From the NCBI GenBank assembly GCA_045106825.1, contig JBGCFH010000036.1, forward strand, positions 23,353-87,352: DNA of 64,000 bases. The letters are read 5' to 3'. The notes under the pieces are model-generated. The model saw nothing but the letters and a program-made list of their open reading frames with translations. It did no database searches and was not told the DNA's origin. Position numbers and translations under genes: made by a program. Shown one piece after another: positions 17,530 through 38,165 of the stretch; within the stretch, counting starts at the first letter, position 1, and every line of letters starts with the position of its first letter. The DNA comes from Saprospiraceae bacterium (GTDB lineage Bacteria; Bacteroidota; Bacteroidia; Chitinophagales; Saprospiraceae).

Positions 17530-17577
17530 CTCCTCCAGAGTTATAAGGTAAACCCTGAAAGGGTTAAATATAAATAA

Positions 17578-18483: not shown

Positions 18484-20172
18484 TTACTCAATCAATAAAG
18501 TCATTTTTCCCAAATTTTTATAATTTTCATTTTTTATGACAATAAAATACAAACCGTTTGAAAAATTCAGTGGTATTTTCAAATCATTTGTACCTTTTTG
18601 AGTTTGATATTTTTCAGATTGTAATAATTGACCCGAAGTATTCAAAATTTCAACATAGACTGAATTCGCTGTTTTAGTCTCAATCTGAACCGTTAATAAT
18701 TCACTATTTTTAAGTGGATTAGGAAAAACGTTGATTGTGTAATTTTCAGTATTAATAATTTTTGTTGAGGTATTAAAATTCACAATAAACGAAAAGGACG
18801 CTGAACAACCAGCTTGATTTGTAATCGTAACACTATAAAATCCGTAAGTAAGATTTTCAATCTTTCGACCTATCGCACCGTTACTCCATATGTAAGTAAA
18901 AACGCCAACTGTATCATCTAAAAACAACTCTATCGAACCATTAGAACTACCATTATCGTCTACAATAATAGTATCTAATAAAGTAATCGTTGGAAGTACA
19001 CTTAACTCTAACGTAGTAATACTATCACAACCATTATTATCAATAGAACTAATGGTATGAATACCTGATGTGGTATAAATATTATTGTTCCAATTATAAC
19101 TTTGTCCATCGCAAATAAAGGCAGAAATTGTACTATCACTGTTTGGTAAAACTGTTAAATTCATATTCAAAAGGCTATCACAACCGAAAGCAGTTGGGAC
19201 AGTTACTTGATACATTCCTGTTGTATTATAAGTATTTCCGTCAAACACGATAGAGTCACCGTGACACAATTCAATATCTATATTTGCTGTCACATCAGCA
19301 CAAGCCGTCACTTGAATTAGAAAAATCTTTTGAATCGAACTCAACAATTGACCATTTCGATATTCGTCAATAGTAATTCCAAAATAATACAATCCAATTT
19401 GAGTTATCGAACCTGTCAATATTCCTGTCAAAGAATCAATCGTAATATTACTACCTAAAGGAAAGCTATTTGTAAACACTGGCGAGATATAAGGGACATT
19501 ACTATATGGTGGCGGACTTGCGGGTCCTGGCCCAGGGTTTCCTTGTTGAAAACCAGTCAGAGGTGTTTTAAAAGTATAATGTAAAGAATCACCATCTATA
19601 TCTATTCCACTGAAATCCATATGAATAGGTTCTCCGACACAATATGTTGTTTGTGTTTCGTTCACAAAAGTGGGACTGTTATTATAAAGTGTTTGTGCAT
19701 CTGCTGAAATGAATGTTGTTAAAGTCATCCCATATGTACTGGGATTAAAAATATTAATAATATTTTGATTTAAGCAACAACGTTGATACGACATATGATA
19801 GCCTAAACTATTAAATGGTAATGTCAATGTTGTGGTATAAGTCGCTACTTCAACTTGAAAAACATTAACAGCACAAATATTAAGATTTGGAGTAGTTAAA
19901 ATATTATTATTATGATTAACAAAAACAGTATTTGAGTTGCCATTGATCAGATACGGTTGTCCATTTCCGTCAAATATACTCAATGGAAGCGGATTATCAA
20001 ATGGAGCGGCAGAGCTTATAGTATCTTTATAAACTTTAATCGTAATCTCATATTGATTATTTCCCAAACACTCGTAATACATTTCGCCGCCAGTTAAGTG
20101 CCACGCAAAAGATGTTGCAGAAAAGAAAATCATCACAGAAAGTGAAAAAATAATTTTAAGATTATTTAGCAT
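18484..20172 (-). CDS. T9SS-secreted cell-surface protein (C-terminal sorting domain)
   Basis: Signal peptide. N-terminal WHLTGGEMYYECLGNNQYEI module. Two tandem Cys-containing repeats of about 45 aa (..CHGDSIVFDGNTYNTTGMYQV..GCDSLLNMNLTVLP / ..CDGQSYNWNNNIYTTSGIHTI..GCDSITTLELSVLP). C-terminal Por_Secre_tail-like NVFPNPLKNSELLTVQI..GLYFIVIKNEN. Confidence 0.75.
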   Translation of the reverse strand: MLNNLKIIFSLSVMIFFSATSFAWHLTGGEMYYECLGNNQYEITIKVYKDTISSAAPFDNPLPLSIFDGNGQPYLINGNSNTVFVNHNNNILTTPNLNICAVNVFQVEVATYTTTLTLPFNSLGYHMSYQRCCLNQNIINIFNPSTYGMTLTTFISADAQTLYNNSPTFVNETQTTYCVGEPIHMDFSGIDIDGDSLHYTFKTPLTGFQQGNPGPGPASPPPYSNVPYISPVFTNSFPLGSNITIDSLTGILTGSITQIGLYYFGITIDEYRNGQLLSSIQKIFLIQVTACADVTANIDIELCHGDSIVFDGNTYNTTGMYQVTVPTAFGCDSLLNMNLTVLPNSDSTISAFICDGQSYNWNNNIYTTSGIHTISSIDNNGCDSITTLELSVLPTITLLDTIIVDDNGSSNGSIELFLDDTVGVFTYIWSNGAIGRKIENLTYGFYSVTITNQAGCSASFSFIVNFNTSTKIINTENYTINVFPNPLKNSELLTVQIETKTANSVYVEILNTSGQLLQSEKYQTQKGTNDLKIPLNFSNGLYFIVIKNENYKNLGKMTLLIE

Positions 20173-25810: not shown

Positions 25811-26650
25811 ATGAATGTCGAAGAGTACATTATTGAACCTCCTAAAAAGGTCTCTATCAAATGGGAAGAACTCTGGCGTTATCGAGAGTTATTCTACTTT
25901 TTTACTTGGCGAGATATTAAGATAAAATACAAGCAAACAATTTTAGGTTTCCTTTGGGCAATTTTACAACCCTTAGCAATGATGACTGTTTTTGTGTTGT
26001 TTTTTGCTAAAGGCTTGAAGGTATCAACCGATAATATTCCTGCTCCAATATTTTATTTTGTAGGCTTAATGTTTTGGAATTTATTTAGTTCAGGGTTGAA
26101 TAGCTCTGCAAATAGTATGGTAGCAAATGCTGATATTATTAAAAAAATCTACTTTCCACGATTAATAATTCCATTTTCAGGTGTTTTGGTCGCATTATTT
26201 GATTTTTTAATGACCTTACTCCCTTTTATTGTTTTAATGATTTATTATTTAATAACAACAGATTTTGTAATCACCCTTGATATCTTATACCTACTTCCTC
26301 TTGCCTTACTACTAACTTTAACAACAACAGTAGGTTTAGGTTGTACGATTGCAGCATGGAATGTAAAATATCGAGATTTTCGTTATATTGTTCCATTTAT
26401 GATACAATTTTTATTATTCATAACACCCGTAATTTATCCTGTTACGATGTTCGATAATATTCCTTATTTAAAATATATTTTAGCTTTAAATCCAATGACT
26501 GGTGTCATGTTAATGGCACGAAATGGCTTTTCCATGGATAGTTTACCGATTGATTTAATCGGAATCAGTATATTTGTATCTATTTTTTTATTAATAATTG
26601 GTCTTTACATCTTTCGAAGGATGGAGGCTTATTTTGCTGATATTGCTTGA
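25811..26650 (+). CDS. wzm: Polysaccharide ABC exporter permease (ABC-2 type, Wzm/TagG-like)
   Basis: N-terminus ELWRYRELFYFFTWRDIKIKYKQTILGFLWAILQPL is the classic Wzm/KpsM/TagG signature. Six hydrophobic helices. Confidence 0.88.
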   Translation: MNVEEYIIEPPKKVSIKWEELWRYRELFYFFTWRDIKIKYKQTILGFLWAILQPLAMMTVFVLFFAKGLKVSTDNIPAPIFYFVGLMFWNLFSSGLNSSANSMVANADIIKKIYFPRLIIPFSGVLVALFDFLMTLLPFIVLMIYYLITTDFVITLDILYLLPLALLLTLTTTVGLGCTIAAWNVKYRDFRYIVPFMIQFLLFITPVIYPVTMFDNIPYLKYILALNPMTGVMLMARNGFSMDSLPIDLIGISIFVSIFLLIIGLYIFRRMEAYFADIA

Positions 26651-26830
26651 TACAAAGATAAGAACAGCCTGAAAAATTTTCTAAAAACAATTCACATCAG
26701 ATTATTATTGTAAAACTTGAATTTATCAAAGATTCTTTATTAGATTACTCTTATTAGAATCAACCTATAGGAGGCAACTGAAAGTAAATAATATTTGAAG
26801 ATAATTTTGGTTGTTTGACAATTTTTGCGA

Positions 26831-26893
26831 GTAGCGACTGTCTTTAGCTGCCATCTTTTGAAATTGTTTACGGCAGTTAAAGACAGCCGCTAC
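26831..26893. repeat. Long GC-rich stem-loop between wzm and the next gene
   Basis: Arms gtagcgactgtctttagctgcc (26831-26852) and ggcagttaaagacagccgctac (26872-26893) pair at 20 of 22 positions, with a 19-nt loop. The stretch is clearly GC-richer than the flanks. Confidence 0.65.
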
Positions 26894-26933
26894 GTGAAAC
26901 AATAATTTTTGCTAATATAGGAATTTCAACAAT

Positions 26934-27872
26934 ATGAATAAAAAGAAAATAATTTACATATTAGGTGTAGAAAGGAGTGGTTCTACCCTATTAAACATAA
27001 TCTTAGGGAATGATGACCATATAGCAAGTTTTGGAGAATTACAGTACTTTCCTGAAGCTGTTCTAAAAAATCATATGGCATATCAAGATGTCAATATTAA
27101 AGAATCCATATTTTGGTCAAATATTATTAATGAATTTGAAGTAAAATTTGGAACAGATATATTTTTGGAGTACCAAAACCTTAGAATAAAATATGAAAGA
27201 TGGCGTAGTATTCCTATGTTATTATTACACAAACTTTTAAAGAAAAAAACTCTTTTTTCATATTGGGAATATAACGATTTTTTAATCGACCAGTTACAAA
27301 AACGAACAAATAAAGAATACGTTTGTGACTCCTCAAAAAACTATCCTCGCTATTTGGCATTATTACTATCTAATCAATATAAATTTTATCCTATCTTAAT
27401 TATTCGTTCTGTTTATGGATATGTTTGGTCTAAAAAGAAACATTCAATAAATAATGGAAATAGCGACAAAAAACAAAATTTATTTAAGTCTATTATTTTT
27501 TGGAATAGTGATAACCTACTTTTTTTAATTATAAGATTATTTAATATTAAAAAAATCCCCATAGTTAAGTATGAAGATTTTGCAACTACTCCTGAAAATA
27601 CACTCAATAGACTTGAGCAAGTTTTTAATTTAAACCTAAAGTCTGTAAAAAAACATATAAAAGAAAAAAATATATTTACTATAAAAAATACAATAGCGGG
27701 AAATTACAGTTTAAGATTAAAAAATAAAATTTCAATAAAATTAGATAATTCTTGGAAAGTTAATTTAACACTAAAGGAAATAATAACAATATCGATATTA
27801 TCATTCTTTCTATTAAAAATCATAAATTATGAAACCTATTTTAAACGTCCAAAATCTTTGGAAACAATATAA
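26934..27872 (+). CDS. Sulfotransferase family protein (RSGST class)
   Basis: N-terminal PAPS 5'-phosphosulfate-binding loop IYILGVERSGSTLLNIILG. Inserted between wzm and wzt, and its 3' end overlaps wzt by 44 nt. Confidence 0.75.
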   Translation: MNKKKIIYILGVERSGSTLLNIILGNDDHIASFGELQYFPEAVLKNHMAYQDVNIKESIFWSNIINEFEVKFGTDIFLEYQNLRIKYERWRSIPMLLLHKLLKKKTLFSYWEYNDFLIDQLQKRTNKEYVCDSSKNYPRYLALLLSNQYKFYPILIIRSVYGYVWSKKKHSINNGNSDKKQNLFKSIIFWNSDNLLFLIIRLFNIKKIPIVKYEDFATTPENTLNRLEQVFNLNLKSVKKHIKEKNIFTIKNTIAGNYSLRLKNKISIKLDNSWKVNLTLKEIITISILSFFLLKIINYETYFKRPKSLETI

Positions 27873-29049
27873 AATCGGTGGGCAACAGGTATCTTACTTG
27901 AGTTTACGAGAACGATTATTACAGCCTTTTCAACGACAACAAACAAATACTTTTTGGGCTTTGCAAGGTCTTAACTTCGATGTTTATGAAGGGGAATGTA
28001 TTGGAATCATTGGTAGAAATGGAGCAGGAAAATCAACTCTTTTAAAGGTTTTATCTCAAATTACACCGCCGACAAAAGGCTGCATCAAAGCAAGAGGAAG
28101 AGTTGCAAGTTTGTTAGAAGTCGGTACAGGTTTTCATCCCGAGCTGACAGGTAGAGAAAACGTCTATTTAAACGGCTCTATTTTGGGTTTAAAACGAGCA
28201 GAAATTAAGGCTAAATTTGACGAAATCATTGATTTTAGTGGTATTGAAAAGTTCTTAGATACACCCTTAAAACATTATTCAAGTGGAATGCGTTTGCGAT
28301 TAGCTTTTTCGGTTGCAGCACATTTAGAACCTGAAATATTGTTAATTGATGAGGTTTTGGCGGTAGGTGATGCAGAGTTTCAGAAGAAGTGTTTGGGGAA
28401 GATGGATGAGGTGAGTAAGAGTGGACGGACGGTGATTTTTGTGAGTCATAATTTGGGGGCAGTTCGACAGTTGTGTAGTAGGGGGATTTTGCTAAATAAT
28501 GGCAGTATTATAACCGACGCTAATATTGATAATGTTATTAACAAATACTTAGGAAGTTATAACCAAACTTATCCTTCAATAAAAGATAGAAAAGATAGAA
28601 AAGGTAGTCTTCAAACAATCATTACAGAAATTGAATTATTAGAGCAAGGAGAAAAAGTATATAACAACTCTATAACAGCAGGAAATGAGTTGACGATTAT
28701 AATAACTTATAAAAGTTTTAGGAAAGACTATAAACAATTAAATAATTTACATATAGGAATTGCTATTTTCAATCAGTCAAACCAGTTTGTTTCTGTATTA
28801 AACAACAAAATGTCAAATTTTTCACTAACAAATCGCCCTTTAGACGGTAAGGTTTATTGTAAAATTGAGAAACTTCCACTCATGGGAGGAAATTTTTCTT
28901 GTAGGGTATCTCTGGAAGTTAATAATAGTCTATGTGACTACATCGAAGATGCATTCTATATAAATGTATTAGAAGGGGATTATTATTTATCAAAAAACCC
29001 AAACGTACAAAGTCGACAAGGAGTATACATCAATCAATCATGGTATTAA
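27829..29049 (+). CDS. wzt: Polysaccharide ABC exporter ATP-binding protein (Wzt/TagH-like) with about 160-aa C-terminal extension
   Basis: Walker A GRNGAGKST, signature YSSGMRLRLAF, Walker B ILLIDEVL. Residues from about 245 to 406 lie beyond the nucleotide-binding domain, as in Wzt proteins that carry a glycan-terminus-binding module. Confidence 0.88.
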   Translation: MKPILNVQNLWKQYKIGGQQVSYLSLRERLLQPFQRQQTNTFWALQGLNFDVYEGECIGIIGRNGAGKSTLLKVLSQITPPTKGCIKARGRVASLLEVGTGFHPELTGRENVYLNGSILGLKRAEIKAKFDEIIDFSGIEKFLDTPLKHYSSGMRLRLAFSVAAHLEPEILLIDEVLAVGDAEFQKKCLGKMDEVSKSGRTVIFVSHNLGAVRQLCSRGILLNNGSIITDANIDNVINKYLGSYNQTYPSIKDRKDRKGSLQTIITEIELLEQGEKVYNNSITAGNELTIIITYKSFRKDYKQLNNLHIGIAIFNQSNQFVSVLNNKMSNFSLTNRPLDGKVYCKIEKLPLMGGNFSCRVSLEVNNSLCDYIEDAFYINVLEGDYYLSKNPNVQSRQGVYINQSWY

Positions 29050-29870
29050 AAAAAAACAAGCTTCCTTCTTTCTTTATAATTGGAGCACAAAAATGCGGTA
29101 CAACCTATCTAAATAATCTATTAGGTAGTTCTCCATTTATTTATAGTCCCCCAAAAAAAGAAATTGATTTTTTCTCAAGTAATTTACTTTATACAAAAGG
29201 GATTTCTTTTTATAAAAAAAGTTTTAACTGTCCTCTCTATACTCTAAAAACCTTTGAGGCATGTCCAAACTATATGTATTATGAAAAGGCTATTAAACGC
29301 ATCTATAAATTTAACCCCAATTCCAAATTAATAATCATCATCAAAAACCCTGTCGAACGATTTATTTCAGCATGGAATATGTACTATCTATTTTTTGTAA
29401 CAAATGACGACAACAAATGGTATTCAAAAACTAATGTTATGAAAAACTATTTTGGAATCATGCCCTCTCCTCACAATCTAAATGGTATTTCTTTTTTAAA
29501 GAAGTCAATATTTCCTTCTTTAGACGAGGTGATAGAACAAGAAATAAGCGATTTTAAGAAAAATAAACTTCTCTTGGAACCAGGATTTCTTACAAGAGGG
29601 CTTTATATTGAACAAATTAAAAACATATTAAAATACTTCAACAACGAACAACTTTTAGTTATAAACAACAATCAGATTAATTCTTCTCTGCCTCAAATCA
29701 AATCTTTTTTAGGCATAGTACACTACCCTTTTTTCACTAAAAAAGTAAATGGGTTTATTGGAACTTACAAAAATGAAATACCAATATCGAAGTTAGAACA
29801 ACTACATCATTTTTATGAACCCTATAATCAGGAATTATATCACTTCTTAAAAAAAGACTTAAAATGGTAA
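29040..29870 (+). CDS. Sulfotransferase (Sulfotransfer_1-like, KxGTT class)
   Basis: 5'-PSB loop FFIIGAQKCGTTYL and 3'-phosphate motif IIIKNPVERFISAWN. Confidence 0.8.
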   Translation: MVLKKNKLPSFFIIGAQKCGTTYLNNLLGSSPFIYSPPKKEIDFFSSNLLYTKGISFYKKSFNCPLYTLKTFEACPNYMYYEKAIKRIYKFNPNSKLIIIIKNPVERFISAWNMYYLFFVTNDDNKWYSKTNVMKNYFGIMPSPHNLNGISFLKKSIFPSLDEVIEQEISDFKKNKLLLEPGFLTRGLYIEQIKNILKYFNNEQLLVINNNQINSSLPQIKSFLGIVHYPFFTKKVNGFIGTYKNEIPISKLEQLHHFYEPYNQELYHFLKKDLKW

Positions 29871-30754
29871 AATCACCTTTAACCAAAGGAACAGTAACCT
29901 TAATAAAAAAAATACCAGTATCCTTTATAATAGAGGGATATTTAAAAACTTTCGGACTTGATACAAGTAAGTATTTTGATTCAACAGATTATTTGAGTTT
30001 ATATCGCTGCGATGATACAGGATATGAATTTTACCATCCTTTTGAGATTGCAGGTGATGAAAATTTTTATGATTTTTTTCAAGAAAAATATGATTGGTAT
30101 TATCAAAAAGATAAGTGGGAATATGAGCAAGCATTAAAAATCGTAAACTTTAAAGGAGCAAAGGTATTAGAAATCGGTTGTGGAAATGGTTATTTTTTAA
30201 AAAAAGCACTCAACAAAAGTGCGAAAATAGCAGAAGGCTTAGAATTTAATAGTCATGCTGTTCGTTATTGCCAATCCGAAGGTTTAAACGTTTCTAACAA
30301 AAACTTATCTGAAATGCCAAAAGGAAACTTTTACGATATTATTTGTTCTTTTCAAGTTTTGGAACATATTGCTGAGGTGAATACCTTTTTCAAAAAAACA
30401 AGTAGCATTTTAAAGAAAAATGGTAAACTAATTATTGCTGTTCCGAATAATGCCTCAGTTCTTTTTCGCAATCAAAATGATTTAAACTTTATTAATCAAC
30501 TACATACAGAAAATTGTCTGTTAAATATGCCTCCACATCATTTAGGAAGATGGCACTATCAGGTCTTCAAAAACATAGAAGTATTTTTCTCCCTCAAACT
30601 AATAAATGTTGCCTACGAACCAATATGGAATGACAGGTTACACTACTTATCATTATTAAATAAAGAGGATAATATTATACAAAAAATAAATTTTAAATTA
30701 TTTAGACCTTTTATAAAAGGGCATTCAATATTGGTTATCTTAAAAAAAATCTAA
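29864..30754 (+). CDS. Class I SAM-dependent methyltransferase
   Basis: Motif I VLEIGCGNGYF, post-I/II YDIICSFQVLEHI, and LKKNGKLIIAVPN. Overlaps the preceding sulfotransferase by 7 nt. Confidence 0.8.
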   Translation: MVKSPLTKGTVTLIKKIPVSFIIEGYLKTFGLDTSKYFDSTDYLSLYRCDDTGYEFYHPFEIAGDENFYDFFQEKYDWYYQKDKWEYEQALKIVNFKGAKVLEIGCGNGYFLKKALNKSAKIAEGLEFNSHAVRYCQSEGLNVSNKNLSEMPKGNFYDIICSFQVLEHIAEVNTFFKKTSSILKKNGKLIIAVPNNASVLFRNQNDLNFINQLHTENCLLNMPPHHLGRWHYQVFKNIEVFFSLKLINVAYEPIWNDRLHYLSLLNKEDNIIQKINFKLFRPFIKGHSILVILKKI

Positions 30755-31923
30755 TGAAAATAGCAATAATAAGCACTATGAATGGTGCGGACTGGGGTGG
30801 AAGTGAAGCACTATGGTTCGATTTTGTTAAATTTTCACAACAAGCTGGACACGAATGTCATGTATATAAAAAAATTAATCCTTCACATCCTAAGGCTTTG
30901 GAGTTGATTAATAAAGGTGTAAATGTAAAGTTTGGGAATAGAAATAAAATCATTAAACTCATTAAACTTGTAGCAAGAAAGTTTTCACAATCACCTATCA
31001 AAACAGAGTTAAAAATAGCACATCTTTTGTCCTTTCTAAATCCTTACAAATGTTATTTTAAAAACAACTTTGATGTTATCTTAATTAATCAAGGAGGTAC
31101 TTATGATATTCTCCATGACACGTTTTTAATGCAATTGGTGTTTGAATATAACAAAAATAATCTTTTTTTAATATGTCATTGGAATACAGATTATTCAAGG
31201 GAGTATTATTTCCCTTACGAATGGCATCGTAGGATTTTTCAAAAATTCAATCGCATTTTCTTTGTTTCTAAAAGAAATCAACAAACGACAGAACGGCAAT
31301 TAGCAACAAAATTGAACAATGCTGAACTCATAAAAAATCCTATTAATAGACCAAATATTGACTATATCAAATATCCTAATAGTGATGATACTTTGAAGAT
31401 AGCTTGTGTTGCACTACTAAGTGCTGTCAATAAAGGGCAAGATGTTTTGTTAGAGGTTTTGAAACAAAAAAAATGGAAAAAAAGGAATATTACTTTACAT
31501 CTCTTTGGTAAGGGACAAGATAAAAGGTATTATGAAGAACTTGTCGATTTGTATGACCTCAAAAATAAAGTTATCTTTGAAGGATATCAACCAGTTGATG
31601 AAATATGGCGAAAGTGTCATTTGCTAATAATGCCATCTATTTCAGAGGGTTTCCCTCTTGCCTTAATAGAAGCAATGACAGCAGGAAGAACAGCTGTAGT
31701 GACTCATATAGCAGGTATGCCCGAAATTATACAAGATGGTAAAAATGGTTTTATTGCAGCTGCTCCAAAGGATGTTTTTTTAGATGCAGCTCTGGAAAAA
31801 GCTTGGAAATATAGAGATACCTGGCAGGAACTTGGACTTAATGCAAGAGAAACTGCGTTAACTTTTTATGAACCGAATGCAGGAGAAGTGTTACTTAAAA
31901 AATTTTATAATGCATTGTTTTAG
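30754..31923 (+). CDS. Glycosyltransferase family 4 (GT-B)
   Basis: C-terminal E-x7-E region SISEGFPLALIEAMTAGRTAVVTHIAGMPEIIQDGKNGF. Confidence 0.8.
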   Translation: MKIAIISTMNGADWGGSEALWFDFVKFSQQAGHECHVYKKINPSHPKALELINKGVNVKFGNRNKIIKLIKLVARKFSQSPIKTELKIAHLLSFLNPYKCYFKNNFDVILINQGGTYDILHDTFLMQLVFEYNKNNLFLICHWNTDYSREYYFPYEWHRRIFQKFNRIFFVSKRNQQTTERQLATKLNNAELIKNPINRPNIDYIKYPNSDDTLKIACVALLSAVNKGQDVLLEVLKQKKWKKRNITLHLFGKGQDKRYYEELVDLYDLKNKVIFEGYQPVDEIWRKCHLLIMPSISEGFPLALIEAMTAGRTAVVTHIAGMPEIIQDGKNGFIAAAPKDVFLDAALEKAWKYRDTWQELGLNARETALTFYEPNAGEVLLKKFYNALF

Positions 31924-32141
31924 TTTAGTTCACAACTAATTATAATTTTATTGCTTCTCTGAAAAAAATTATGGTTTCGATGAAAATTGTAAAAAAATGA
32001 AATCTGCTACGATAATATTTGATATTCGGGACTCCGTTGACTTTTAATCAAATACCTAATAGCATCGTCGAAAAGTTTTTATTGTTTTGAATTTTGAACG
32101 TTTCCACAAAACAATTCAAATAACCTTCTTATTATTCAAAA

Positions 32142-33131
32142 ATGAATAAAAAAATAGAAAACAAGGGTATTTCCGTCATAATTTGTTGCTATAATAGTAT
32201 TGCAAGAATAAAACCGACTTTACAGCATATTGCAATGCAAGATGTTCCAAATAATATTTCATGGGAAGTAATTTTGGTTGATAATAACTCTAATGACGGA
32301 ACAGCAGATTTTGCACGTCAACTATGGATGAACTTCGAAAAAGAAGTATTCCTACACATAGTTACTGAAAAAAAAGCAGGACTTAATTATGCACGAGAAA
32401 AAGGCATCGTAACAAGTGCTTACGAATACATCATATTTTGTGATGATGATAACTGGTTAAATTTTTCTTATGTTAGTACAGTTTATGAATTGATGAGTAA
32501 TAATGATAGGATTGGAGTATTAGGTGGAATAGGCACGGCGGTTTCTGATACGACACTCCCTAAATGGTTTGAAGACTTACAATCTTTTTATGCTGTTGGT
32601 AAACAACATCATACGGAAGGAAATATTGGGTATAAAGCGGTATATGGTGCAGGAATGGTTCTAAGGAAATCGTATTTTTTGTATGCAAAAAATAAGGGGT
32701 TTAAAGCTTTACTATCGGGTAGAAAAGAAAATCAATTATCGTCAGGAGAAGATTACGAATTGTGCTTAGTTATGATTTTGTTAGGATATGAAATATGGTA
32801 TAATGAACGATTAAGCTTTAAGCATTTTATCTCTAAAGCAAGATTAAATTGGGATTATTTATCAAAATTGAATGACGCAAATGGTCAAGTAATGTTTGTA
32901 TCTATTGCTTATTATCATCATCTAAAACAATATCCTATCAATTTAGGATTTTATTTATTATTTGGATTAAAATTTTCTCTTAGCTTTCTCGTAAATCTAA
33001 TTTTCCCTCCATTTTCGTACTTAAAAAAACAACGTAATCAGATTAAACAAACATACCTGCTAAAATATTTTAAAAATTGGCGTCTTTATAAAGATATGCG
33101 AAACGAAATAAATAACTGGATTTTTCAATGA
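32142..33131 (+). CDS. Glycosyltransferase family 2 (GT-A)
   Basis: ISVIICCYNS.., VILVDNNSNDGT, and the DxD region FCDDDNWL. Confidence 0.85.
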   Translation: MNKKIENKGISVIICCYNSIARIKPTLQHIAMQDVPNNISWEVILVDNNSNDGTADFARQLWMNFEKEVFLHIVTEKKAGLNYAREKGIVTSAYEYIIFCDDDNWLNFSYVSTVYELMSNNDRIGVLGGIGTAVSDTTLPKWFEDLQSFYAVGKQHHTEGNIGYKAVYGAGMVLRKSYFLYAKNKGFKALLSGRKENQLSSGEDYELCLVMILLGYEIWYNERLSFKHFISKARLNWDYLSKLNDANGQVMFVSIAYYHHLKQYPINLGFYLLFGLKFSLSFLVNLIFPPFSYLKKQRNQIKQTYLLKYFKNWRLYKDMRNEINNWIFQ

Positions 33132-34294
33132 AAATACTTACAATTGTCGATACATTTCCTCCTGTTTTTGGTGGTGTTGGAGAGTACACTTATTTCTTGT
33201 TAAAAGAGTTAAGCTTCTATGGACATAAATTGAGCGTAATCTGTGAACGGCACGAAACAATTCAAAGCACGAATTGGTGTGAAGTCTTTCCTATTGTAGA
33301 TGATTGGAAAGCTTTAAATCAATATATAGGGAAAATAAAAACTATTAATCCTGATGTAGTAATTATTCAATACGACAATTTTAGTTACCATAAATTTGGA
33401 ACTCCTTTCTTTTTTAATCTCTTGATACTTCGTATTAGACCAATTAAAGTGGTCATTTTTTTTCATGAAGTCCGAAGTAAATTCAAACGATATGGACTAT
33501 TTCGCTTCTTTAATGTCTCTCTACAAATTTTAAACACTCAATTGTTACATACATTATCGGGGGTCTCCATAACGAGTATTCCTTTCTATCAAAAACTTAT
33601 TCAAAAGCCATTTTTAAGTTCGAAACCAGTAAAACTCATACGAATAGGAAGTAATATCACACTTGATAAAACAACAAAAGATATATCCATATTAGCAAAT
33701 CAACTTGGTCTAACAAATCATTTTATAGTTGGGACTTTTGGTCATAAACCTCGTAATATTAATTTTATTATAGAAACACTTCCTGCTCTACTTCAACAAC
33801 AAAGTAATGTTAAACTACTTATTATAGGAGCGTTCAGATCTGATATTCTAAATAAAATTAAGGAAAAAATACAAAAATTAAAGTTAACAAAACATATTAT
33901 TTTTACAGGATACCTAACTAAGGAAGAAGTTAGTAATTATCTAAGACTTATAGATATTTATTTGATGTTGGAAAACGTTTCCACAGATGGTCTTTGGACA
34001 GGTACATCTACTCGTAGTGGATCATTAGCCGCAGCAATGGGAACAGGAAAAGTAATTATAGGAACTAAAGGTGAAAAGACAGATGCTTTTTTTACAGATA
34101 AGAATATTTTACTACTTGAGGAATTATCAATTTCTAATTTGTTAAATGCTATTTCATTCTTATCAAAAAATGAAGTAGTGAGAAAAACTATGGTGGAAGA
34201 ATCTTTAAAGAGCTATCAACAAGCATTATCATGGGAAGTGATTGCTCGACAGTACAACACTATACTTACTGATTATTCAATTAACAAGCAATAA
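33128..34294 (+). CDS. Glycosyltransferase (GT-B, GT4-like)
   Basis: N-terminus MKILTIVDTFPPVFGGVGEYTYFL is typical of GT4 enzymes. The C-terminal half is divergent. Overlaps the GT2 gene by 4 nt. Confidence 0.6.
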   Translation: MKILTIVDTFPPVFGGVGEYTYFLLKELSFYGHKLSVICERHETIQSTNWCEVFPIVDDWKALNQYIGKIKTINPDVVIIQYDNFSYHKFGTPFFFNLLILRIRPIKVVIFFHEVRSKFKRYGLFRFFNVSLQILNTQLLHTLSGVSITSIPFYQKLIQKPFLSSKPVKLIRIGSNITLDKTTKDISILANQLGLTNHFIVGTFGHKPRNINFIIETLPALLQQQSNVKLLIIGAFRSDILNKIKEKIQKLKLTKHIIFTGYLTKEEVSNYLRLIDIYLMLENVSTDGLWTGTSTRSGSLAAAMGTGKVIIGTKGEKTDAFFTDKNILLLEELSISNLLNAISFLSKNEVVRKTMVEESLKSYQQALSWEVIARQYNTILTDYSINKQ

Positions 34295-34349: not shown

Positions 34350-35213
34350 TCAGGGAAAACAAATAATATCTAACTGACAGTTATCTAAATTTATCCTATT
34401 TATATTTTTTTTAGTATTTGCATCCTGAATTTTGTAGTATTTAAGAGAACGAAGATACTCAATCATATCTAATGCCGAGCTTCCGTAATTCCTCAAATGT
34501 TTATCACATAATTCTACAAATAAAATAGGTTTATGTTCTCTGATGACTTCTACTGCTCCTTGAAGAACATCCATCTCAAAACCTTCTACATCTATTTTTA
34601 GAACATTTATCTCTGAGATATTTTGTCCTTTTATAAAATTATCTAAAGTAATAACTTGTATATCTTGTTTTCTTGATTTATCCAAGACAACTCGACTTGT
34701 CCCGAGATTATTTTTCTCAGCAACTTCTAAACACAATCGACCATTTTCTTTACCAACAGCCATATCATGAATCGTAATATTTGTAAAAGGATTTAGAGCT
34801 ATATTCTTTTTTAATTTGTTCAAATTTAAGGGATGTGGCTCAAAAGCAAAAACTTTTCCATTAGGAGCTACCTTTGCAAAATTAAGAGTATAATATCCAA
34901 GATTAGCTCCTACATCAATGATACATGCCTCTGATTTAATAGTAGAAAGGAGATAATCCATGCTTTTATCAAAAACCCTATAATAAACACGCCAATCATT
35001 GTAGTTACTTATATCCAACTCAAAGTTGATTCCGTCATTTTTTACTATTTTGATGGTTAAGGCATCAGATGATTTGGGGCGATGTGCCAATAAATCTCTT
35101 AGTTTATAATTTCCGATATATCCTTTTCTCAATACATTTTGAAAAAATTGAACTTTGCGAAAAGGTAAAAATAAACATTGTAAAAAATACTTCACAAAAT
35201 CCTTTAGTCTCAT
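34350..35213 (-). CDS. FkbM-family SAM-dependent methyltransferase
   Basis: IIDVGANLGYYTLNFAK, KVFAFEPHPLN and KIDVEGFEMDVLQGA are the FkbM signature blocks. Confidence 0.85.
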   Translation of the reverse strand: MRLKDFVKYFLQCLFLPFRKVQFFQNVLRKGYIGNYKLRDLLAHRPKSSDALTIKIVKNDGINFELDISNYNDWRVYYRVFDKSMDYLLSTIKSEACIIDVGANLGYYTLNFAKVAPNGKVFAFEPHPLNLNKLKKNIALNPFTNITIHDMAVGKENGRLCLEVAEKNNLGTSRVVLDKSRKQDIQVITLDNFIKGQNISEINVLKIDVEGFEMDVLQGAVEVIREHKPILFVELCDKHLRNYGSSALDMIEYLRSLKYYKIQDANTKKNINRINLDNCQLDIICFP

Positions 35214-36058
35214 CTGTTTTTTTTATCAAAATACCACTCTTTAATTTGATGTGGTGTATTTTTAAGAAGCATTAATTTAAATAACCAGTAATATTTATGT
35301 CTTTTTTGTTCCAAACCGACCTTGATATTGTATTCTAAATCAAACTTTAAGGAGAATTGGTGATAGATAGATCCTTCAACAACATCTTCTTTATTTAATT
35401 TCATCACTCTCCAAGATTCATTCAACCAGTGAATGACAAATTGTGAGGAAGGCAACACCATATCATAGTTACTATACAAGGCTATCTGTTCCCACCTATC
35501 AGGATTAGCAATAGTCGAGTTGATATATTTTTTTAGTTTAAATTGTTTGATTGCTTTTCGTAAAATAAAGGAAGGCAACATCCATTTTTTATTATTCTCA
35601 TCAACATATTGTTTAGTTTGTTGATAACACCATTTCATTATTGGACTTTTAGGTGGACATTTAATCATATTATTAACAATAGAACGAGCCGAATCTCTAC
35701 GAAAAACATAAGGTTCATCAAAATCCAATGCCTTCAAACAAGTCATATCCATATCTACCCACCAACCACCTTTTTCATACAGAAGCTTACATCGGAAAAT
35801 ATCGGAAAAACCTGCAACGCTGCCTTTTCCATGTCCATATTTACTATGATTTTTATATCTAAAAATTTCATTTTTAGGAATTATTTCATTTGCATCTTTG
35901 AGTACAACTCCGTTTGGTATAGGTGTTTTAATAGTATCGTATACCCAAAGTTGAAAAGTATGACCATGATATAAAAAAGACTCAAGTGTCAATAAACCTA
36001 AATTATCAAGAGTATCTCCTATCCATAAACTATTAACAACTTGATTACTCGTATTCAT
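35210..36058 (-). CDS. GT32-like glycosyltransferase with DxD motif (tandem paralogue 1)
   Basis: GFSDIFRCKLLYEKGGWWVDMDMTCLK resembles the sugar-binding/DxD region of GT32-type enzymes (..SD..R..LL...GG.Y.D.D). 282 aa. Confidence 0.6.
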   Translation of the reverse strand: MNTSNQVVNSLWIGDTLDNLGLLTLESFLYHGHTFQLWVYDTIKTPIPNGVVLKDANEIIPKNEIFRYKNHSKYGHGKGSVAGFSDIFRCKLLYEKGGWWVDMDMTCLKALDFDEPYVFRRDSARSIVNNMIKCPPKSPIMKWCYQQTKQYVDENNKKWMLPSFILRKAIKQFKLKKYINSTIANPDRWEQIALYSNYDMVLPSSQFVIHWLNESWRVMKLNKEDVVEGSIYHQFSLKFDLEYNIKVGLEQKRHKYYWLFKLMLLKNTPHQIKEWYFDKKNR

Positions 36059-36903
36059 TCAATTATTTTTTTTAATAATAACCTAAATGAATTAGGTAAC
36101 AAAGGAATAAGCTTTTGTCTAAGTTTCCATTCAATATATTTGAACCTACCATGCCCTTTACTCCCCTTATTTATCTTAATATCATAAGAATCTATTAGTT
36201 TAGCATACGTTGTATTTTTCATCGCTATATTCTTATTCAATCCTTTATTATTCCAAGCTGTATTCACCCAATGAATAATGTGATAACTCTCGTCAATAGG
36301 ATATTGATAAAAATAATATAATGCGATTAACTCCCATCTATCTAAATTAGATGAGTTATGATGGATAAAATTTGATAATTTTAATTTTTTAATATTCTTA
36401 TTCAAAATTATAATTGGTTTCAACCAATCTATATTGTCTGGAGTTACTTTTATAACTGCTTCTTCATAACAATTATACATTAATTGACTTTTAGGTGGAC
36501 ATTTCATAAAATTTCCAACTATGGGTAAAAAATCATTAGGTCGAAAAACGTAAGGAGTACTAAAATTTAAGGGTTTCAAACACGTTACATCCATATCTAC
36601 CCACCAACCACCTTTTTCATAAAGCAGTTTATACCTAAAAATATCTGAAAATCCTGCTACACTACCTTTCCCTTGTTTCGAGATAGGATCATTATATTTA
36701 TATCTAAAAATTCGGGAAGCCGGTAATATTTCATTAGCATTTTTCACAACGACCTCCTCAGGAATTTTGGTTTCTAATTCTTCATAGAGATATAGATGAA
36801 ACTCATGACCATAATAAATAAACGAATGTAAGGTCAAAAGTTCTAAAGGAGATAATGTTTTACCTATCCAAAGACTTTGTACAATTTTATTCTGTTTATT
36901 CAA
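36055..36903 (-). CDS. GT32-like glycosyltransferase with DxD motif (tandem paralogue 2)
   Basis: GFSDIFRYKLLYEKGGWWVDMDVTCLK. Also exactly 282 aa. Shares an identical 33-nt block with paralogue 1 (36589-36621 versus 35747-35779). Confidence 0.6.
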   Translation of the reverse strand: MNKQNKIVQSLWIGKTLSPLELLTLHSFIYYGHEFHLYLYEELETKIPEEVVVKNANEILPASRIFRYKYNDPISKQGKGSVAGFSDIFRYKLLYEKGGWWVDMDVTCLKPLNFSTPYVFRPNDFLPIVGNFMKCPPKSQLMYNCYEEAVIKVTPDNIDWLKPIIILNKNIKKLKLSNFIHHNSSNLDRWELIALYYFYQYPIDESYHIIHWVNTAWNNKGLNKNIAMKNTTYAKLIDSYDIKINKGSKGHGRFKYIEWKLRQKLIPLLPNSFRLLLKKIIE

Positions 36904-38012
36904 TTTTGTGTAATACTTGTTATTTTATCCAAATAAAAATCAATAATACGCTTTTCACTAAACTGTTCTTTAACAATTCGTCGTCCTGCTCTTCCCATTT
37001 CAATTCTCTTTTCTTTCGATAACGAGATAAATTTTTCAATAGTTTCTTCCAAACTTTGAATACTTTTTGGTTCACATAGAAAGCCATTAATGCCATCTTG
37101 TACAACTTCTCGACACCCTACATTATCTGTTGTAATAATTGGTTTTCCCATACTCGCAGCTTCCAATAAAATTCGAGATACCCCTTCTCTATAAAAAGAA
37201 GGAAAAATAATACAATCAGATTCTGCAATAAAAGGACGAATATCAGCAGTATCGCCTAAATAATTAATAATACCTCGCTCGTGTTTTTCTTGGATTTCTT
37301 GTAGAGTAATACTATTAGGATTTTTTGAATCTATAAAACCTAATATAGAAAAGATAATTGATTCATCTTTAATTTTTTCGGCAGTATCTATAAGAATTTC
37401 AAGACCTTTATCTTTAATTAATCTTCCTGCAAAAAGAAAATTAATCTTACTATCTTTTTTAAAAGACTTTTGTGGTGTAAAGTGTTTAGTATTAATGCCT
37501 TCACTATTTAGGAGTACTACTTTATCTTCTGTTATAATTTTTTCTTTAAGAAAATCCTTAACATCTTGTTCATTTAAAAACCACATTTCTTTACATAGTT
37601 TACCTGCCAAACAGTATAATTGTTTAGTGATTTTTTTCGTAAAGAAATTTCGATAGAAAAGATGTCCTAATCCTGTAGTAACAGCAATAGAAGGAATATC
37701 ATTTATATATGCAGCTAATGTTCCATATATATTTGGTTTTATTGTATAATGAAATATAATACAAGGTCTTATTTTTCTATATAATATCACTAAAGAAATT
37801 ATAGTACGAATATCTTTAAAAGGATTAGTACCATAATTATCTAATTTTATATCAAAATAATCACATCCAACCTCTTCTAATTTTAAGCTGTAATCGTCAA
37901 ATGGAGCTATCACTACTACTTTGAAGCCTTTTAGTAGTAATGCTTTTACGATACCTAATCGAAAGTTATAAAGACTCCAAGAAGTATTTGCAACAAAGAT
38001 AATAGACTTCAC
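36900..38012 (-). CDS. Glycosyltransferase family 4
   Basis: N-terminus FVANTSWSLYNFRLGIVKALLLKGFKV and C-terminus SFYREGVSRILLEAASMGKPIITTDNVGCREVVQDGINGFL. Confidence 0.8.
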   Translation of the reverse strand: MKSIIFVANTSWSLYNFRLGIVKALLLKGFKVVVIAPFDDYSLKLEEVGCDYFDIKLDNYGTNPFKDIRTIISLVILYRKIRPCIIFHYTIKPNIYGTLAAYINDIPSIAVTTGLGHLFYRNFFTKKITKQLYCLAGKLCKEMWFLNEQDVKDFLKEKIITEDKVVLLNSEGINTKHFTPQKSFKKDSKINFLFAGRLIKDKGLEILIDTAEKIKDESIIFSILGFIDSKNPNSITLQEIQEKHERGIINYLGDTADIRPFIAESDCIIFPSFYREGVSRILLEAASMGKPIITTDNVGCREVVQDGINGFLCEPKSIQSLEETIEKFISLSKEKRIEMGRAGRRIVKEQFSEKRIIDFYLDKITSITQN

Positions 38013-38165
38013 ACAATATTTTTATAGTCTTTAATAATTTGGACATTAGACAAAAAATGTTAGATAATATACTAACAGTAATTAAATTTACTGATTATCA
38101 AAACAAAATACAGATTAATAGTGTATTGTGTAAATAAGTCTAATATCTATTTATCTAAAATACCA

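Follow-up and report, generated by a model that had tools for sequence, protein, structure and literature searches.

A Wzm/Wzt glycan-export locus from a Saprospiraceae bacterium in which a sulfated chain end may act as an export signal

In solved systems for ABC-transporter-dependent glycan export, the C-terminal carbohydrate-binding domain (CBD) of Wzt binds finished, lipid-linked chains at their modified non-reducing end, so that only completed chains are admitted. That modification is a methyl-phosphate cap in Escherichia coli O9a and Klebsiella pneumoniae O3, where it is the work of the kinase-methyltransferase WbdD; a beta-Kdo cap, furnished by a glycosyltransferase domain of WbbB, in Raoultella terrigena and K. 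pneumoniae O12; and a 3-O-methyl-Rha/Man cap in Aquifex aeolicus. All characterised terminators of CBD-dependent systems carry a coiled-coil ruler (PMC11231755). In Aeromonas salmonicida A450, wzt (encoding a Wzt of 438 aa) is followed by the gene for a hypothetical sulfotransferase-domain protein, and then by wbbB (PMC4483657).

The locus described here (Table 1) lies within a 64-kb stretch of Saprospiraceae DNA, the whole of which is referred to below as the window. Five genes (wzm, the sulfotransferase genes ST1 and ST2 on either side of wzt, and the methyltransferase gene MT), together with their overlaps and a Wzt extension of approximately 160 residues, were found at exactly the coordinates given in an earlier note on this DNA. 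The reading frames overlap by 44 nt (ST1/wzt), 10 nt (wzt/ST2), 7 nt (ST2/MT) and 1 nt (MT/GT4a), and a gap of 283 nt between wzm and ST1 contains an inverted repeat that is unique within the window and gave only hairpin-like matches below threshold in an Rfam search. The sulfotransferase gene that the note described between wzm and wzt is indeed present, but its location is less unusual than had been supposed, as related loci often hold genes at that junction: a methyltransferase gene (L004), a sulfotransferase gene with two small genes (L001), or a whole C25 peptidase gene (L089). GT2, one of the two remaining glycosyltransferases of the forward operon, is HpsE-like in NCBIfam at a score below the cutoff. 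The convergent operon encodes an FkbM/RfbT-like methyltransferase, two GT32-like transferases, a GT4, a conserved 535-aa protein and a WecA-like initiating phosphotransferase; among loci syntenic with the window, identities are 72% for the 535-aa protein (L005), 45-52% for the GT32-like proteins (L004) and 40% for FkbM (L005). The adjacent Wzx/Wzy cluster of the same window contributes five further sulfotransferases; no genes for PAPS synthesis were found within the 64 kb, and no coiled-coil ruler was found in any protein of the operon.

Table 1. Features of the export locus, in window coordinates
Feature	Positions	Strand	Basis or detail
wzm, ABC-2 permease of glycan exporter, 279 aa	25811-26650	+	Pfam ABC2_membrane E 1.2e-14
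Inverted repeat in wzm-ST1 gap	26821-26903		32-nt arms, 81% complementary, 19-nt loop
ST1, sulfotransferase, 312 aa	26934-27872	+	Pfam Sulfotransfer_3 E 1.1e-9, 39 bits (cutoff 27)
wzt	27829-29049	+	Pfam ABC_tran + Wzt_C
Wzt nucleotide-binding domain, residues 1-244	27829-28560	+	Pfam ABC_tran E 1.7e-23
Wzt CBD, residues 245-406	28561-29049	+	Pfam Wzt_C + tail model
Candidate ligand-site residue H308	28750-28752	+	Sequence alignment
Candidate ligand-site residue N325	28801-28803	+	Sequence alignment
Candidate ligand-site residue K327	28807-28809	+	Sequence alignment
Candidate ligand-site residue R396	29014-29016	+	Sequence alignment
ST2, heparan-sulfate-3-O-sulfotransferase-like carbohydrate sulfotransferase, 276 aa	29040-29870	+	Pfam Sulfotransfer_1/3
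MT, class I SAM methyltransferase, 296 aa	29864-30754	+	Pfam Methyltransf_23/31/12/11
GT4a, family 4 glycosyltransferase	30754-31923	+	Pfam Glycos_transf_1
GT2, glycosyltransferase	32142-33131	+	Pfam
GT4b, glycosyltransferase	33128-34294	+	Pfam
Convergent operon, same glycan locus	34350-40982	-	Pfam + NCBIfam

Wzm and Wzt constitute an exporter of the O-antigen type, and Wzt carries a true C-terminal CBD. Its start codon is backed by an N-terminal consensus of 57 homologues; its ATPase domain is matched best in the PDB by Wzt of A. aeolicus (8dku and 7k2t, E 1e-71); and Pfam Wzt_C matches residues 255-383 at 49.3 bits (cutoff 30.4). An AF2 model of the tail is all-beta (pLDDT 87.5), and ranks 1-17 of a Foldseek search with that model are all Wzt CBDs (5hno/5hnp, 6o14/8dky, 2r5o and the CBD of full-length A. 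aeolicus Wzt in 8dl0, 8dku, 7k2t and 8dne; E 1e-9 to 3e-7, TM 0.55-0.69), followed by an E-value gap of about two orders of magnitude to non-Wzt structures. A model of full-length Wzt aligns with A. aeolicus Wzt over about 400 columns. The earlier proposal that the extension is a Wzt-type CBD, which was made to depend upon a beta-sandwich fold, is thus borne out.

ST2, a candidate cap sulfotransferase, can be aligned from end to end with human 3-OST-5, with conservation of K-x-G-T-T, E-I-(D/H)-F-F and P..R..S, and retains the PAPS-binding motifs and catalytic Glu of heparan sulfate 3-O-sulfotransferases; L007 and L008 encode its orthologues at position +1 from wzt, and L089 does so at +3. MT, a candidate cap O-methyltransferase, comprises a methyltransferase domain (residues 95-237) preceded by a conserved N-terminal domain of about 95 residues; full-length orthologues (33-38% identity) follow wzt and a sulfotransferase gene in L001-L003, and its family is represented in 318 loci of GTDB species representatives, often directly after wzt. 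The suggestion that ST2 and MT form a terminator resembling WbdD did not hold up: the pair resembles WbdD in neither sequence nor architecture, and leaves no room for a coiled-coil ruler. A kinase-like two-step reaction yielding a methyl-sulfate product was also considered and rejected as chemically implausible, since dialkyl sulfates are reactive alkylating agents. ST1, which has a C-terminal hydrophobic stretch starting at residue 279, has its nearest paralogue, ST3 (27.5% over 240 aa), in the neighbouring Wzx/Wzy cluster, lacks an orthologue in any related locus examined, and is probably an accessory decorating enzyme.

Comparison with other loci indicates which of these genes accompany the tail. 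In three syntenic loci (L004-L006), the PorU2-like upstream gene (74-78%), wzm (85-89%) and the ATPase domain of Wzt (84-90%) are closely conserved in identity, but the tails are unrelated to that of the window, and downstream of wzt lie methyltransferase-only or GT-FkbM genes without a sulfotransferase. We infer that tail, sulfotransferase, methyltransferase and glycosyltransferases form an exchangeable serotype cassette, lying between the conserved wzm/ATPase domain and the convergent operon. Where the tail is related to that of the window (eight loci examined, L001-L003, L087-L090 and L092, with tail identity of 34-44% and ATPase-domain identity of 59-84%), a sulfotransferase is invariably encoded at +1 to +3 from wzt. 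A methyltransferase accompanies it in six of the eight; of the others, L089 has a 2OG-Fe(II) oxygenase in its stead and L087 has a GT2 after the sulfotransferase, and the methyltransferases of L088, L090 and L092 are unrelated to that of the window. Three non-orthologous families are represented among the sulfotransferases of these loci, and at least three families among the methyltransferases; this diversity speaks against the simple co-inheritance of a single frozen cassette.

When the tails of 44 loci were clustered at E<1e-25, none of seven multi-member clusters was mixed with respect to a downstream sulfotransferase: three (14 loci) were entirely positive, and the rest entirely negative. 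That concordance was equalled in 1 of 100,000 label permutations (and in 1,410 of 100,000 for the sample chosen by MT alone), in a test that treats related sequences as independent and includes only three positive lineages at the level of clusters. Of the 14 positive loci, 12 have the sulfotransferase gene directly after wzt, often with an overlap across the wzt stop codon, at the position occupied by wbdD in E. coli O9a. Two further loci (L007 and L008) possess orthologues of ST2, MT and GT4a together with tails not detectably similar to that of the window, and thus ST2 does not dictate one tail type. The co-occurrence test that the earlier note had asked for came out positive, in that every tail of this type among the loci examined has a sulfotransferase beside wzt, usually with a methyltransferase; the tail is not, however, tied to the specific ST2-MT pair, as members of the MT family commonly follow wzt directly with no sulfotransferase present. 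The constant partner is sulfotransferase activity, and the comparative data support a link between CBDs of this type and sulfation.

The reading preferred here, to which we assign about an even chance, is that this is a locus of the 'terminate, then export' kind, in which the epitope that licenses export through the CBD includes an O-sulfate added by ST2 at the chain end. The ABC-transporter-dependent locus would build the chain and export it; ST2 would add the O-sulfate in the cytoplasm from PAPS, as part of the epitope read by the CBD; and MT would add an O-methyl group to the same or a neighbouring terminal sugar, probably also within the epitope. GT4a, which travels with MT, may transfer that terminal sugar; once capped, a chain would no longer grow and would be cleared for export, and ST1 would probably provide additional decoration. 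Three candidate basic residues at the CBD's ligand face (K327, H308 and R396) would contact the sulfate. If true, this would suggest that a sulfated chain end is a previously undescribed 'ready for export' tag; the author of the earlier note knew of no such example, and a search of open-access literature likewise returned no described sulfate cap.

The candidate contacts were mapped onto A. aeolicus Wzt by sequence alignments at about 16% identity. Asn313 of that protein contacts the cap sugar and lies on the ligand-binding sheet (PMC9445017); it aligns with N325, which, like R396, is invariant in the tail cluster of the window. Two residues after the Asn313 equivalent, the K327 column (aligned with Tyr315) is the most enriched in K/R/H of 223 alignment columns, with 13 of 14 sulfotransferase-positive tails against 6 of 29 negative tails (p 8.5e-6, for a column chosen as the best of 223 and with related sequences counted as independent); the three positive clusters display K, H and R there, respectively. 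A Trp at the methyl-lid position (Trp362) occurs in none of the positive tails and in 5 of 29 negative ones. The two groups are no different in the overall charge or pI of their tails.

A second reading, somewhat unlikely but the first of the alternatives to be weighed, holds that MT alone terminates the chain (the arrangement of E. coli O8 and A. aeolicus), that the CBD pocket binds an O-methyl sugar, and that ST1 and ST2 act in the cytoplasm to sulfate internal residues in each repeat. The tail would then co-vary with sulfotransferases because the groove between CBD and ATPase domain contacts two or three sulfated sugars behind the cap, and the A. aeolicus transporter does contact three terminal sugars (PMC9445017). 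The widespread MT family, so often found after wzt without a sulfotransferase, indicates that methylation could by itself provide the cap, and the closest solved relatives of ST2 sulfate internal residues of a polymer. Internal sulfation is moreover routine in this organism: the five sulfotransferases of the neighbouring cluster mean that sulfation need not be terminal, and sulfation in a Wzx/Wzy system must occur on each repeat unit, so that sulfotransferases here also act internally. Set against this reading are the inconstancy of MT in a tail cluster where a sulfotransferase is always present, the absence of the methyl-lid Trp from every sulfotransferase-linked tail, and the position of the most discriminating basic column, which adjoins the contact to the cap sugar itself and not to a second or third sugar.

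It is considerably less probable that the CBD reads a distinct terminal sugar (such as one that GT4a might add, much as Kdo-type terminators do) or an unmodified backbone motif, with the sulfotransferases and MT providing decorations that have no bearing on export. GT4a, a candidate for either a terminal-sugar transferase or part of the polymerase, does travel with MT: an orthologue comes directly after MT in L001 (35% identity), L007 and L008, and in L039 it lies one gene farther on. Most members of the tail cluster to which the window belongs lack it, however, with other glycosyltransferases in L087-L090 and L092 and only weak GT4 similarity in L002 and L003. The top structural match of the tail is a Kdo-cap-binding CBD (5hno), but the three solved CBD types differ little in their Foldseek scores. 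That the locus is exchanged as a cassette is clear, and co-variation might reflect shared serotype cassettes, but non-orthologous sulfotransferases beside related tails are not predicted by simple co-inheritance. That the gene order is without functional meaning, in a chimeric contig or among decaying genes, is very improbable: the source is a metagenome-assembled genome and the hairpin-bearing gap before ST1 could mark an insertion scar, but reading frames and catalytic motifs are intact, junctions are tight or overlapping, and the wzt-sulfotransferase-methyltransferase order recurs in independent assemblies and cultured isolates.

Several described systems and enzymes resemble this locus in part. 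The enzymes 3-OST-1, -3 and -5 share with ST2 the full-length alignment (with 3-OST-5) and the PAPS-binding and catalytic motifs, but are Golgi enzymes acting on internal glucosamine residues, whereas ST2 is bacterial and cytoplasmic. A. salmonicida A450 is likened to the window by gene order, its ABC-dependent O-antigen cluster having a sulfotransferase-domain gene directly after wzt. A Kdo-type terminator is probably provided there by WbbB, and the investigators of that cluster report no sulfate in the repeat-unit structure (PMC4483657), as would be expected of a terminal sulfate present in sub-stoichiometric amounts. The CBD of R. terrigena and K. pneumoniae O12 (5hno, 5hnp) is the best structural match (E 1.1e-9, TM 0.67-0.69, rmsd 2.0-3.2), although its sequence match to the tail is marginal and partial (E 0.21); its cap is likewise anionic, but is a sugar, whereas that proposed here is a sulfate ester. 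Among solved full-length proteins, A. aeolicus WzmWzt (7k2t, 8dku, 8dky, 6o14) is the nearest relative (33-35% identity) and shares the cap-contacting Asn, but the window's family is without its 'trap loop' insertion (residues 352-356), has Tyr, Lys or Arg in place of Trp362 and Lys in place of Tyr315, and, unlike A. aeolicus, is accompanied by adjacent sulfotransferase genes. Compared with E. coli O9a and K. pneumoniae O3, the window has no kinase, and two separate small proteins where those systems have one large bifunctional protein; its methyltransferase shows no relation to WbdD that can be detected in sequence, a coiled-coil ruler is lacking, and neither ST2 nor MT has an obvious membrane anchor. 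Sulfate and methyl are here probably attached to different hydroxyls, in place of a methyl ester on the anionic group. The window nevertheless shares with those systems an ABC exporter whose Wzt bears a C-terminal jelly-roll CBD (for the tail model, the match to 2r5o, of the O9a type, has E 1.5e-8 and TM 0.67), modification enzymes encoded directly after wzt, the pairing of an anionic group with a methyl group, and a serotype-specific tail that is exchanged together with its modifying genes while the ATPase domain is conserved.

The C-terminal extension of Wzt, proposed in the earlier note to be a carbohydrate-binding module like that of E. coli O9a, is a true Wzt carbohydrate-binding domain (CBD) with a beta-sandwich (jelly-roll) fold, because Wzt_C is detected in it above cutoff and its model matches solved CBDs first. 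The preceding ATPase domain matches ABC_tran (E 1.7e-23), has A. aeolicus Wzt structures as its best PDB matches (E 1e-71), and carries Walker A, signature and Walker B motifs (GRNGAGKST, YSSGM and IDEVLAVGD, respectively) that are invariant or nearly so across 58 homologues. Within the tail (residues 245-406), Wzt_C (PF14524, residues 255-383) scores 49.3 bits against a gathering cutoff of 30.4. An AF2 model of full-length Wzt (pLDDT 83.6) could be aligned over approximately 400 columns with full-length A. aeolicus Wzt, and a tail-only model (pLDDT 87.5) contained eight to nine beta strands; both are monomer models, and the C-terminal segment is of low confidence in each. When the tail model was compared with the PDB using Foldseek, ranks 1-17 were occupied by 5hno/5hnp, 6o14/8dky, 2r5o and full-length A. 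aeolicus Wzt (E 1e-9 to 3e-7, TM 0.55-0.69), after which E values worsened by more than 100-fold and generic Ig-like sandwiches appeared from about E 1e-5. Three solved CBD types were thereby matched, namely the Kdo-cap domain of R. terrigena O12, the 3-O-methyl-cap domain of A. aeolicus and the methyl-phosphate-cap domain of E. coli O9a.

Tails of this type are rare: when 1.84 billion representative proteins were searched exhaustively with HMMER, 433 matched at E<=1e-3 and 55 at E<=1e-10, with no match at E<=1e-30, and the nearest tails are 34-44% identical. A word-indexed homologue search with the tail alone gave no match (full-length Wzt was used for the homologue set), and a metagenome scan with the tail alignment found one locus, lacking downstream sequence. 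A profile of the tail cluster produced a marginal partial match to 5hno only among PDB sequences, and the residues that contact ligand in the Kdo and methyl-phosphate CBDs are therefore unmappable onto the tail.

The coordinates, overlaps and domain calls of the earlier note were all reproduced by a re-analysis of open reading frames and Pfam domains. The operon begins with wzm, followed by a 283-nt gap with a hairpin and then by ST1 (a sulfotransferase), wzt, ST2 (a second sulfotransferase), MT (a class I SAM methyltransferase) and a family 4 glycosyltransferase (GT4), with overlaps of 44 nt (ST1/wzt), 10 nt (wzt/ST2), 7 nt (ST2/MT) and 1 nt (MT/GT4). An ABC-2 permease is thus encoded in the same operon as wzt (Pfam ABC2_membrane, E 1.2e-14), the start codon of Wzt is backed by the consensus of 57 homologues, and the largest protein of the operon is at most 406 aa in length; NCBIfam contains no curated equivalog for any of wzm, ST1, wzt, ST2 or MT.

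Features of the glycan region and its borders (positions in the window; +, forward strand; -, reverse strand)
Feature	Position	Strand	Remarks
N6/N4 DNA methylase and 232-aa protein	16099-18291	+	
T9SS cargo gene	18484-20172		adjoins PorU2-like gene
PorU2-like protein, 1669 aa	20577-25586	-	upstream of and divergent from wzm; NCBIfam 683 bits, cutoff 450
ABC-transporter operon	25811-34294	+	
wzm	25811-26650	+	
Inverted repeat, wzm-ST1 gap	26821-26903		32-nt arms, 81% complementary; 19-nt loop; relatively GC-rich
ST1	26934-27872	+	
wzt	27829-29049	+	
ST2	29040-29870	+	
MT	29864-30754	+	
GT4a	30754-31923	+	family 4 glycosyltransferase
Convergent operon	34350-40982	-	FkbM/RfbT-like methyltransferase, glycosyltransferases, 535-aa protein, WecA-like initiating transferase
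FkbM/RfbT-like methyltransferase	34350-35213	-	
535-aa protein	38166-39773	-	
Wzx/Wzy-dependent cluster	from ~42300		5 further sulfotransferases, nonulosonic-acid pathway
Sulfotransferase genes of Wzx/Wzy cluster	46285-47181, 47159-48097, 49200-50051, 52767-53699, 55286-56170	-	
Wzx	50052-51530		interleaved with sulfotransferases and glycosyltransferases
Wzy-like gene	51514-52788		interleaved with sulfotransferases and glycosyltransferases
Nonulosonic-acid-type pathway	57396-63576	-	at window end; includes oxidoreductases
Cytidylyltransferase	59046-59783	-	nonulosonic-acid-type pathway
Nucleotidyltransferase with CBS domain	59784-60860	-	nonulosonic-acid-type pathway
PglD-like acetyltransferase	60832-61461	-	nonulosonic-acid-type pathway
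UDP-GlcNAc 2-epimerase	61451-62560	-	nonulosonic-acid-type pathway
NeuB-like synthase	62560-63576	-	nonulosonic-acid-type pathway

The insertion of a gene between those for the permease and the ATPase, to which attention had previously been drawn, is present here and is not exceptional: in related loci the same junction also takes extra genes, encoding a methyltransferase (L004), a sulfotransferase (L001) or a C25 peptidase (L089). A small gene for a '23S rRNA intervening sequence protein' (PF05635) also recurs at this junction, in L001 (8148-8621) and L016 (882-1265), and a 156-aa reading frame after wzm in L063 is, by its position, perhaps a third case of that type. The inverted repeat of the wzm-ST1 gap occurs once in the window; it could have been left by an insertion, or could serve in processing or attenuation. 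A search of that gap against Rfam identified no family; its microRNA-like matches, all below threshold, were dismissed as chance matches to the hairpin. Scans for promoters and terminators performed no better than on shuffled sequence.

The alignment of ST2 with human heparan sulfate 3-O-sulfotransferase 5 (3-OST-5) spans the full length, and ST2 retains both the 5'-phosphosulfate-binding loop K-x-G-T-(T/R) (QKCGTT, versus RKGGTR in 3-OST-5) and the Arg and Ser of the 3'-phosphate motif (NPVERFISAW, versus REPTTRAISDY). Its KEIDFF segment aligns with QEIHFF of the human enzyme and carries the Glu of the E-I-(H/D)-F-F motif, which we take, from 3-OST structures, to be the catalytic base. By these motifs, ST2 is a putative PAPS-dependent carbohydrate sulfotransferase of the 3-OST-like type. 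MT (296 aa) comprises a conserved N-terminal domain of approximately 95 residues and a methyltransferase domain, exceeds the cutoffs of several Pfam methyltransferase families, and displays a motif I (E/D-x-G-x-G-x-G; VLEIGCGNG) that is invariant among four orthologues, features that are those of a predicted, generic class I O-methyltransferase-like protein. For ST1, the related loci contain no orthologue; the protein most similar to it is ST3, from the neighboring Wzx/Wzy cluster. The C-terminus of ST1 is hydrophobic, and ST1 is regarded as a probable accessory decorating enzyme.

It had been suggested that ST2 and MT form a terminator resembling WbdD, with a sulfotransferase in the place of the kinase. 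The pair does adjoin wzt and is exchanged together with the tail (see below), and as judged from sequence its membership in the WbdD family fails on three defining features: (i) Pfam and NCBIfam detect a kinase domain in none of the operon's genes, which include sulfotransferases instead; (ii) WbdD is absent both from the single-sequence PDB matches of MT (all 13 at E<=0.01) and from the best 60 of 136 profile-search matches at E<=1, the best of which, by sequence comparison, are UbiG-like O-methyltransferases; and (iii) ST2 (276 aa) and MT, judged by their lengths and alignments, leave no room for a coiled-coil ruler.

The proposed association of the tail with sulfotransferases was examined in eight loci encoding related tails (L001-L003, L087-L090 and L092), the ATPase domains of which are 59-84% identical to that of the window, and was borne out in all eight, each having a sulfotransferase downstream of wzt. 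That gene is the first after wzt in six of the loci, the second in L088, where a methyltransferase intervenes, and the third in L089, where it lies on the opposite strand. A methyltransferase is found beside the sulfotransferase in 6/8, the exceptions being L089, which has a 2OG-Fe(II) oxygenase, and L087, which shows a GT2 followed by the contig end. The sulfotransferases of the window, L001-L003 and L087-L090 (L092 being left out) fall into three families without significant mutual similarity, one containing ST2 and the enzyme of L089, a second ('PKSGST') those of L001-L003 and L090, and a third those of L087 and L088; the methyltransferases comprise at least three families. Because both kinds of enzyme belong to several families, the constant partner of this tail type appears to be sulfotransferase activity rather than a particular gene, and this diversity argues against the inheritance of a single frozen cassette.

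Alignment of the MT family identified 318 loci in GTDB species representatives, from Bacteroidota, Cyanobacteria, Patescibacteria, Acidobacteriota, Planctomycetota and Proteobacteria, 80 of which were retrieved with flanks. Wzt lies no more than six genes away in approximately 35 of those 80, and in 9-10 MT loci MT directly follows wzt without a sulfotransferase, such that the MT family is, by itself, a frequent neighbor of Wzt. Members of this family are also fused into multidomain proteins of 585-785 aa in some genomes (among L057, L017, L071 and L082); a sulfotransferase gene lies directly upstream of the fusion in L057, and long proteins of L017 and L071 (~460 aa and 1092 aa) matched sulfotransferase seeds. 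Such fusions caused an earlier iterative phmmer set of sulfotransferases to drift in its third round, and that set was rejected; the final iterative phmmer run excluded them.

When all Wzt tails of known context were clustered (phmmer E<1e-25), the cluster containing the window's tail (8 non-redundant loci) was found to be entirely positive for a sulfotransferase beside wzt, as was a second cluster (L052, L063, L069 and L080). A third includes the tails of Tamlana haliotis (L007) and Corallibacter vietnamensis (L008), both positive and both carrying orthologues of ST2, MT and GT4a. The remaining clusters and singletons, totaling 30 loci, were all scored negative, a class that may hide some divergent sulfotransferases and with which Pfam spot checks agreed; no multi-member cluster was mixed. 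The observed concordance was matched by 1 of 100,000 label shuffles (1,410 of 100,000 for the MT-anchored sample alone), figures that treat relatives as independent and so overstate significance, there being three positive clusters at the level of lineages. This pattern amounts to a direct prediction, open to testing, that a sulfotransferase next to wzt can be foretold from the sequence type of the CBD.

Among 120 Wzt homologues, many share ATPase domains that are 80-90% identical and tails with undetectable similarity. Three loci at the same genomic position as that of the window (L004-L006) have a PorU2-like gene, wzm and an ATPase domain that are, respectively, 74-78%, 85-89% and 84-90% identical to those of the window, and their unrelated tails are followed by a methyltransferase, a GT32-FkbM fusion or a TylF-like methyltransferase, with no sulfotransferase after wzt in any of them. 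ST2 and MT, which follow wzt with overlapping ends, have been exchanged along with the tail relative to these loci, in the same pattern as in E. coli O8, O9 and O9a, where the tail and terminator are serotype-specific and move together.

Residues at the predicted ligand face were mapped by aligning a profile to A. aeolicus Wzt and by aligning 43 tails with MAFFT, at approximately 16% identity. N325, invariant in the window's tail cluster, aligns with Asn313 of A. aeolicus, a residue that in the crystal structure forms a hydrogen bond with the cap-sugar ring oxygen on a flat sheet formed by strands 3, 4, 6 and 7 (PMC9445017). K327 lies two residues further along the strand, and so would be predicted to occupy the same face. 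Chosen post hoc as the best of 223 alignment columns, the K327 column displays the greatest enrichment of Lys, Arg or His in positive tails (13/14 versus 6/29 negative tails, p 8.5e-6), with Lys, His and Arg found in the three positive clusters, respectively. The next most enriched columns are those of H308 and R396; H308 precedes by three residues the position aligned with strand 3 residue Ile299, the backbone carbonyl of which touches the cap sugar in A. aeolicus. Trp362 of A. aeolicus, which closes the methyl pocket as a lid, has a Trp counterpart in none of the positive tails versus 5/29 negative tails. R396, conserved without exception in the window's cluster, belongs to the C-terminal segment that protomers swap in solved CBD dimers. 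This pattern is what a variant of the pocket that binds anions would look like; net charge and pI did not separate sulfotransferase-linked tails from other tails.

The window, of approximately 30% GC, encodes a Wzt that is 100% identical to a protein of a Saprospiraceae bacterium MAG at NCBI (P0001), and harbors a very large surface-glycan region with seven sulfotransferases in total. The five in the Wzx/Wzy-dependent cluster point to a probable second, heavily sulfated, Wzy-dependent polysaccharide; no genes for PAPS synthesis were found within the 64-kb window. A DNA methylase of 476 aa and a 232-aa protein without a family match, which may constitute a restriction-modification pair, are encoded between housekeeping genes and the glycan region. 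In the convergent operon, the FkbM/V. cholerae RfbT-like methyltransferase shares 40% identity with the C-terminal half of the GT32-FkbM fusion encoded immediately after wzt in the syntenic L005 (11191-12780); because RfbT methylates the terminal perosamine of V. cholerae Ogawa, this enzyme could, by analogy, be a second or alternative end-modifying enzyme of the locus. The 535-aa protein of the same operon, for which Pfam and NCBIfam hold no family, is 72% identical in L005 (17874-19481) and is matched by position and size to a 535-aa product in L088 (16030-17355) with weak similarity to Caps_assemb_Wzi; it may be an outer-membrane component of the glycan pathway. The 1669-aa protein encoded divergently from wzm scores above the NCBIfam cutoff for PorU2, a putative sortase of the type IX secretion system (T9SS), and its gene also adjoins wzm-wzt in L004, L005, L006, L088 and L089, despite their varying tails and downstream genes. 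PorU of P. gingivalis attaches T9SS cargo to anionic LPS; given this precedent and the conserved divergent gene, the exported anionic glycan could, by analogy, be a surface anchor for T9SS cargo in Saprospiraceae.

On the indirect evidence of co-variation and residue mapping, we consider the chances to be evenly balanced that a sulfate-containing cap is read by the Wzt CBD. A rather unlikely alternative is that the MT family applies a methyl cap to a backbone that happens to be sulfated. Co-variation of the tail with a sulfotransferase would also be expected in that case, as the transporter touches approximately three terminal sugars, and the MT family is widespread. Furthermore, the five sulfotransferases of the Wzx/Wzy cluster must work on repeat units, so internal sulfation would be normal in this organism, and the pairing of the ST2 family with two different tail clusters was counted against a terminal sulfate. 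General chemical grounds led to the rejection of a 'methyl-sulfate' diester, which would be the direct counterpart of the methyl-phosphate of O9a. Returning to a sulfate cap recognized by Wzt, it is conceivable, and proposed here with less than even confidence, that O-sulfate, usually with O-methyl, represents a further class of non-reducing-end export licence beside methyl, (methyl)phosphate and Kdo, one that emerged in three or more CBD lineages, inside and outside Bacteroidota, each having its own basic residue (Lys, His or Arg) beside the Asn that contacts the cap, and with anchoring of T9SS cargo as a further possibility. What endures from the interpretation in the earlier note is the CBD fold and the link of tail to sulfotransferase; the assignment of ST2 and MT to the WbdD family does not.

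The capping of chain ends and their recognition by the transporter constitute a quality-control principle of ABC-dependent glycan export, for which the established caps are methyl, (methyl)phosphate and Kdo (PMC9445017, PMC11231755). A cap containing sulfate, if real, would be a new cap chemistry, would tie PAPS metabolism to glycan export and would provide, as a product of natural evolution, a small domain for binding a sulfated sugar; cultured carriers of the orthologous genes are available in T. haliotis B1N29 and C. vietnamensis JCM 17525. Searches of the open-access literature on Wzt or wzm with sulfotransferases, and on O-antigen capping with sulfate, yielded no account of a sulfate cap, and one may have been reported elsewhere. 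The O-antigen cluster of Aeromonas salmonicida contains an unexplained gene with a sulfotransferase domain directly after wzt, and its repeat unit is without sulfate (PMC4483657); a sulfate cap would, if true, explain that gene, and a sub-stoichiometric terminal sulfate could have escaped analysis of the repeat unit. The system described here would then be the known terminator/CBD export checkpoint in a new form, for which the comparative support is solid and in which we infer the position of the sulfate; its proposed logic, of chain-end modification followed by export, would be the same as that of the WbdD system.
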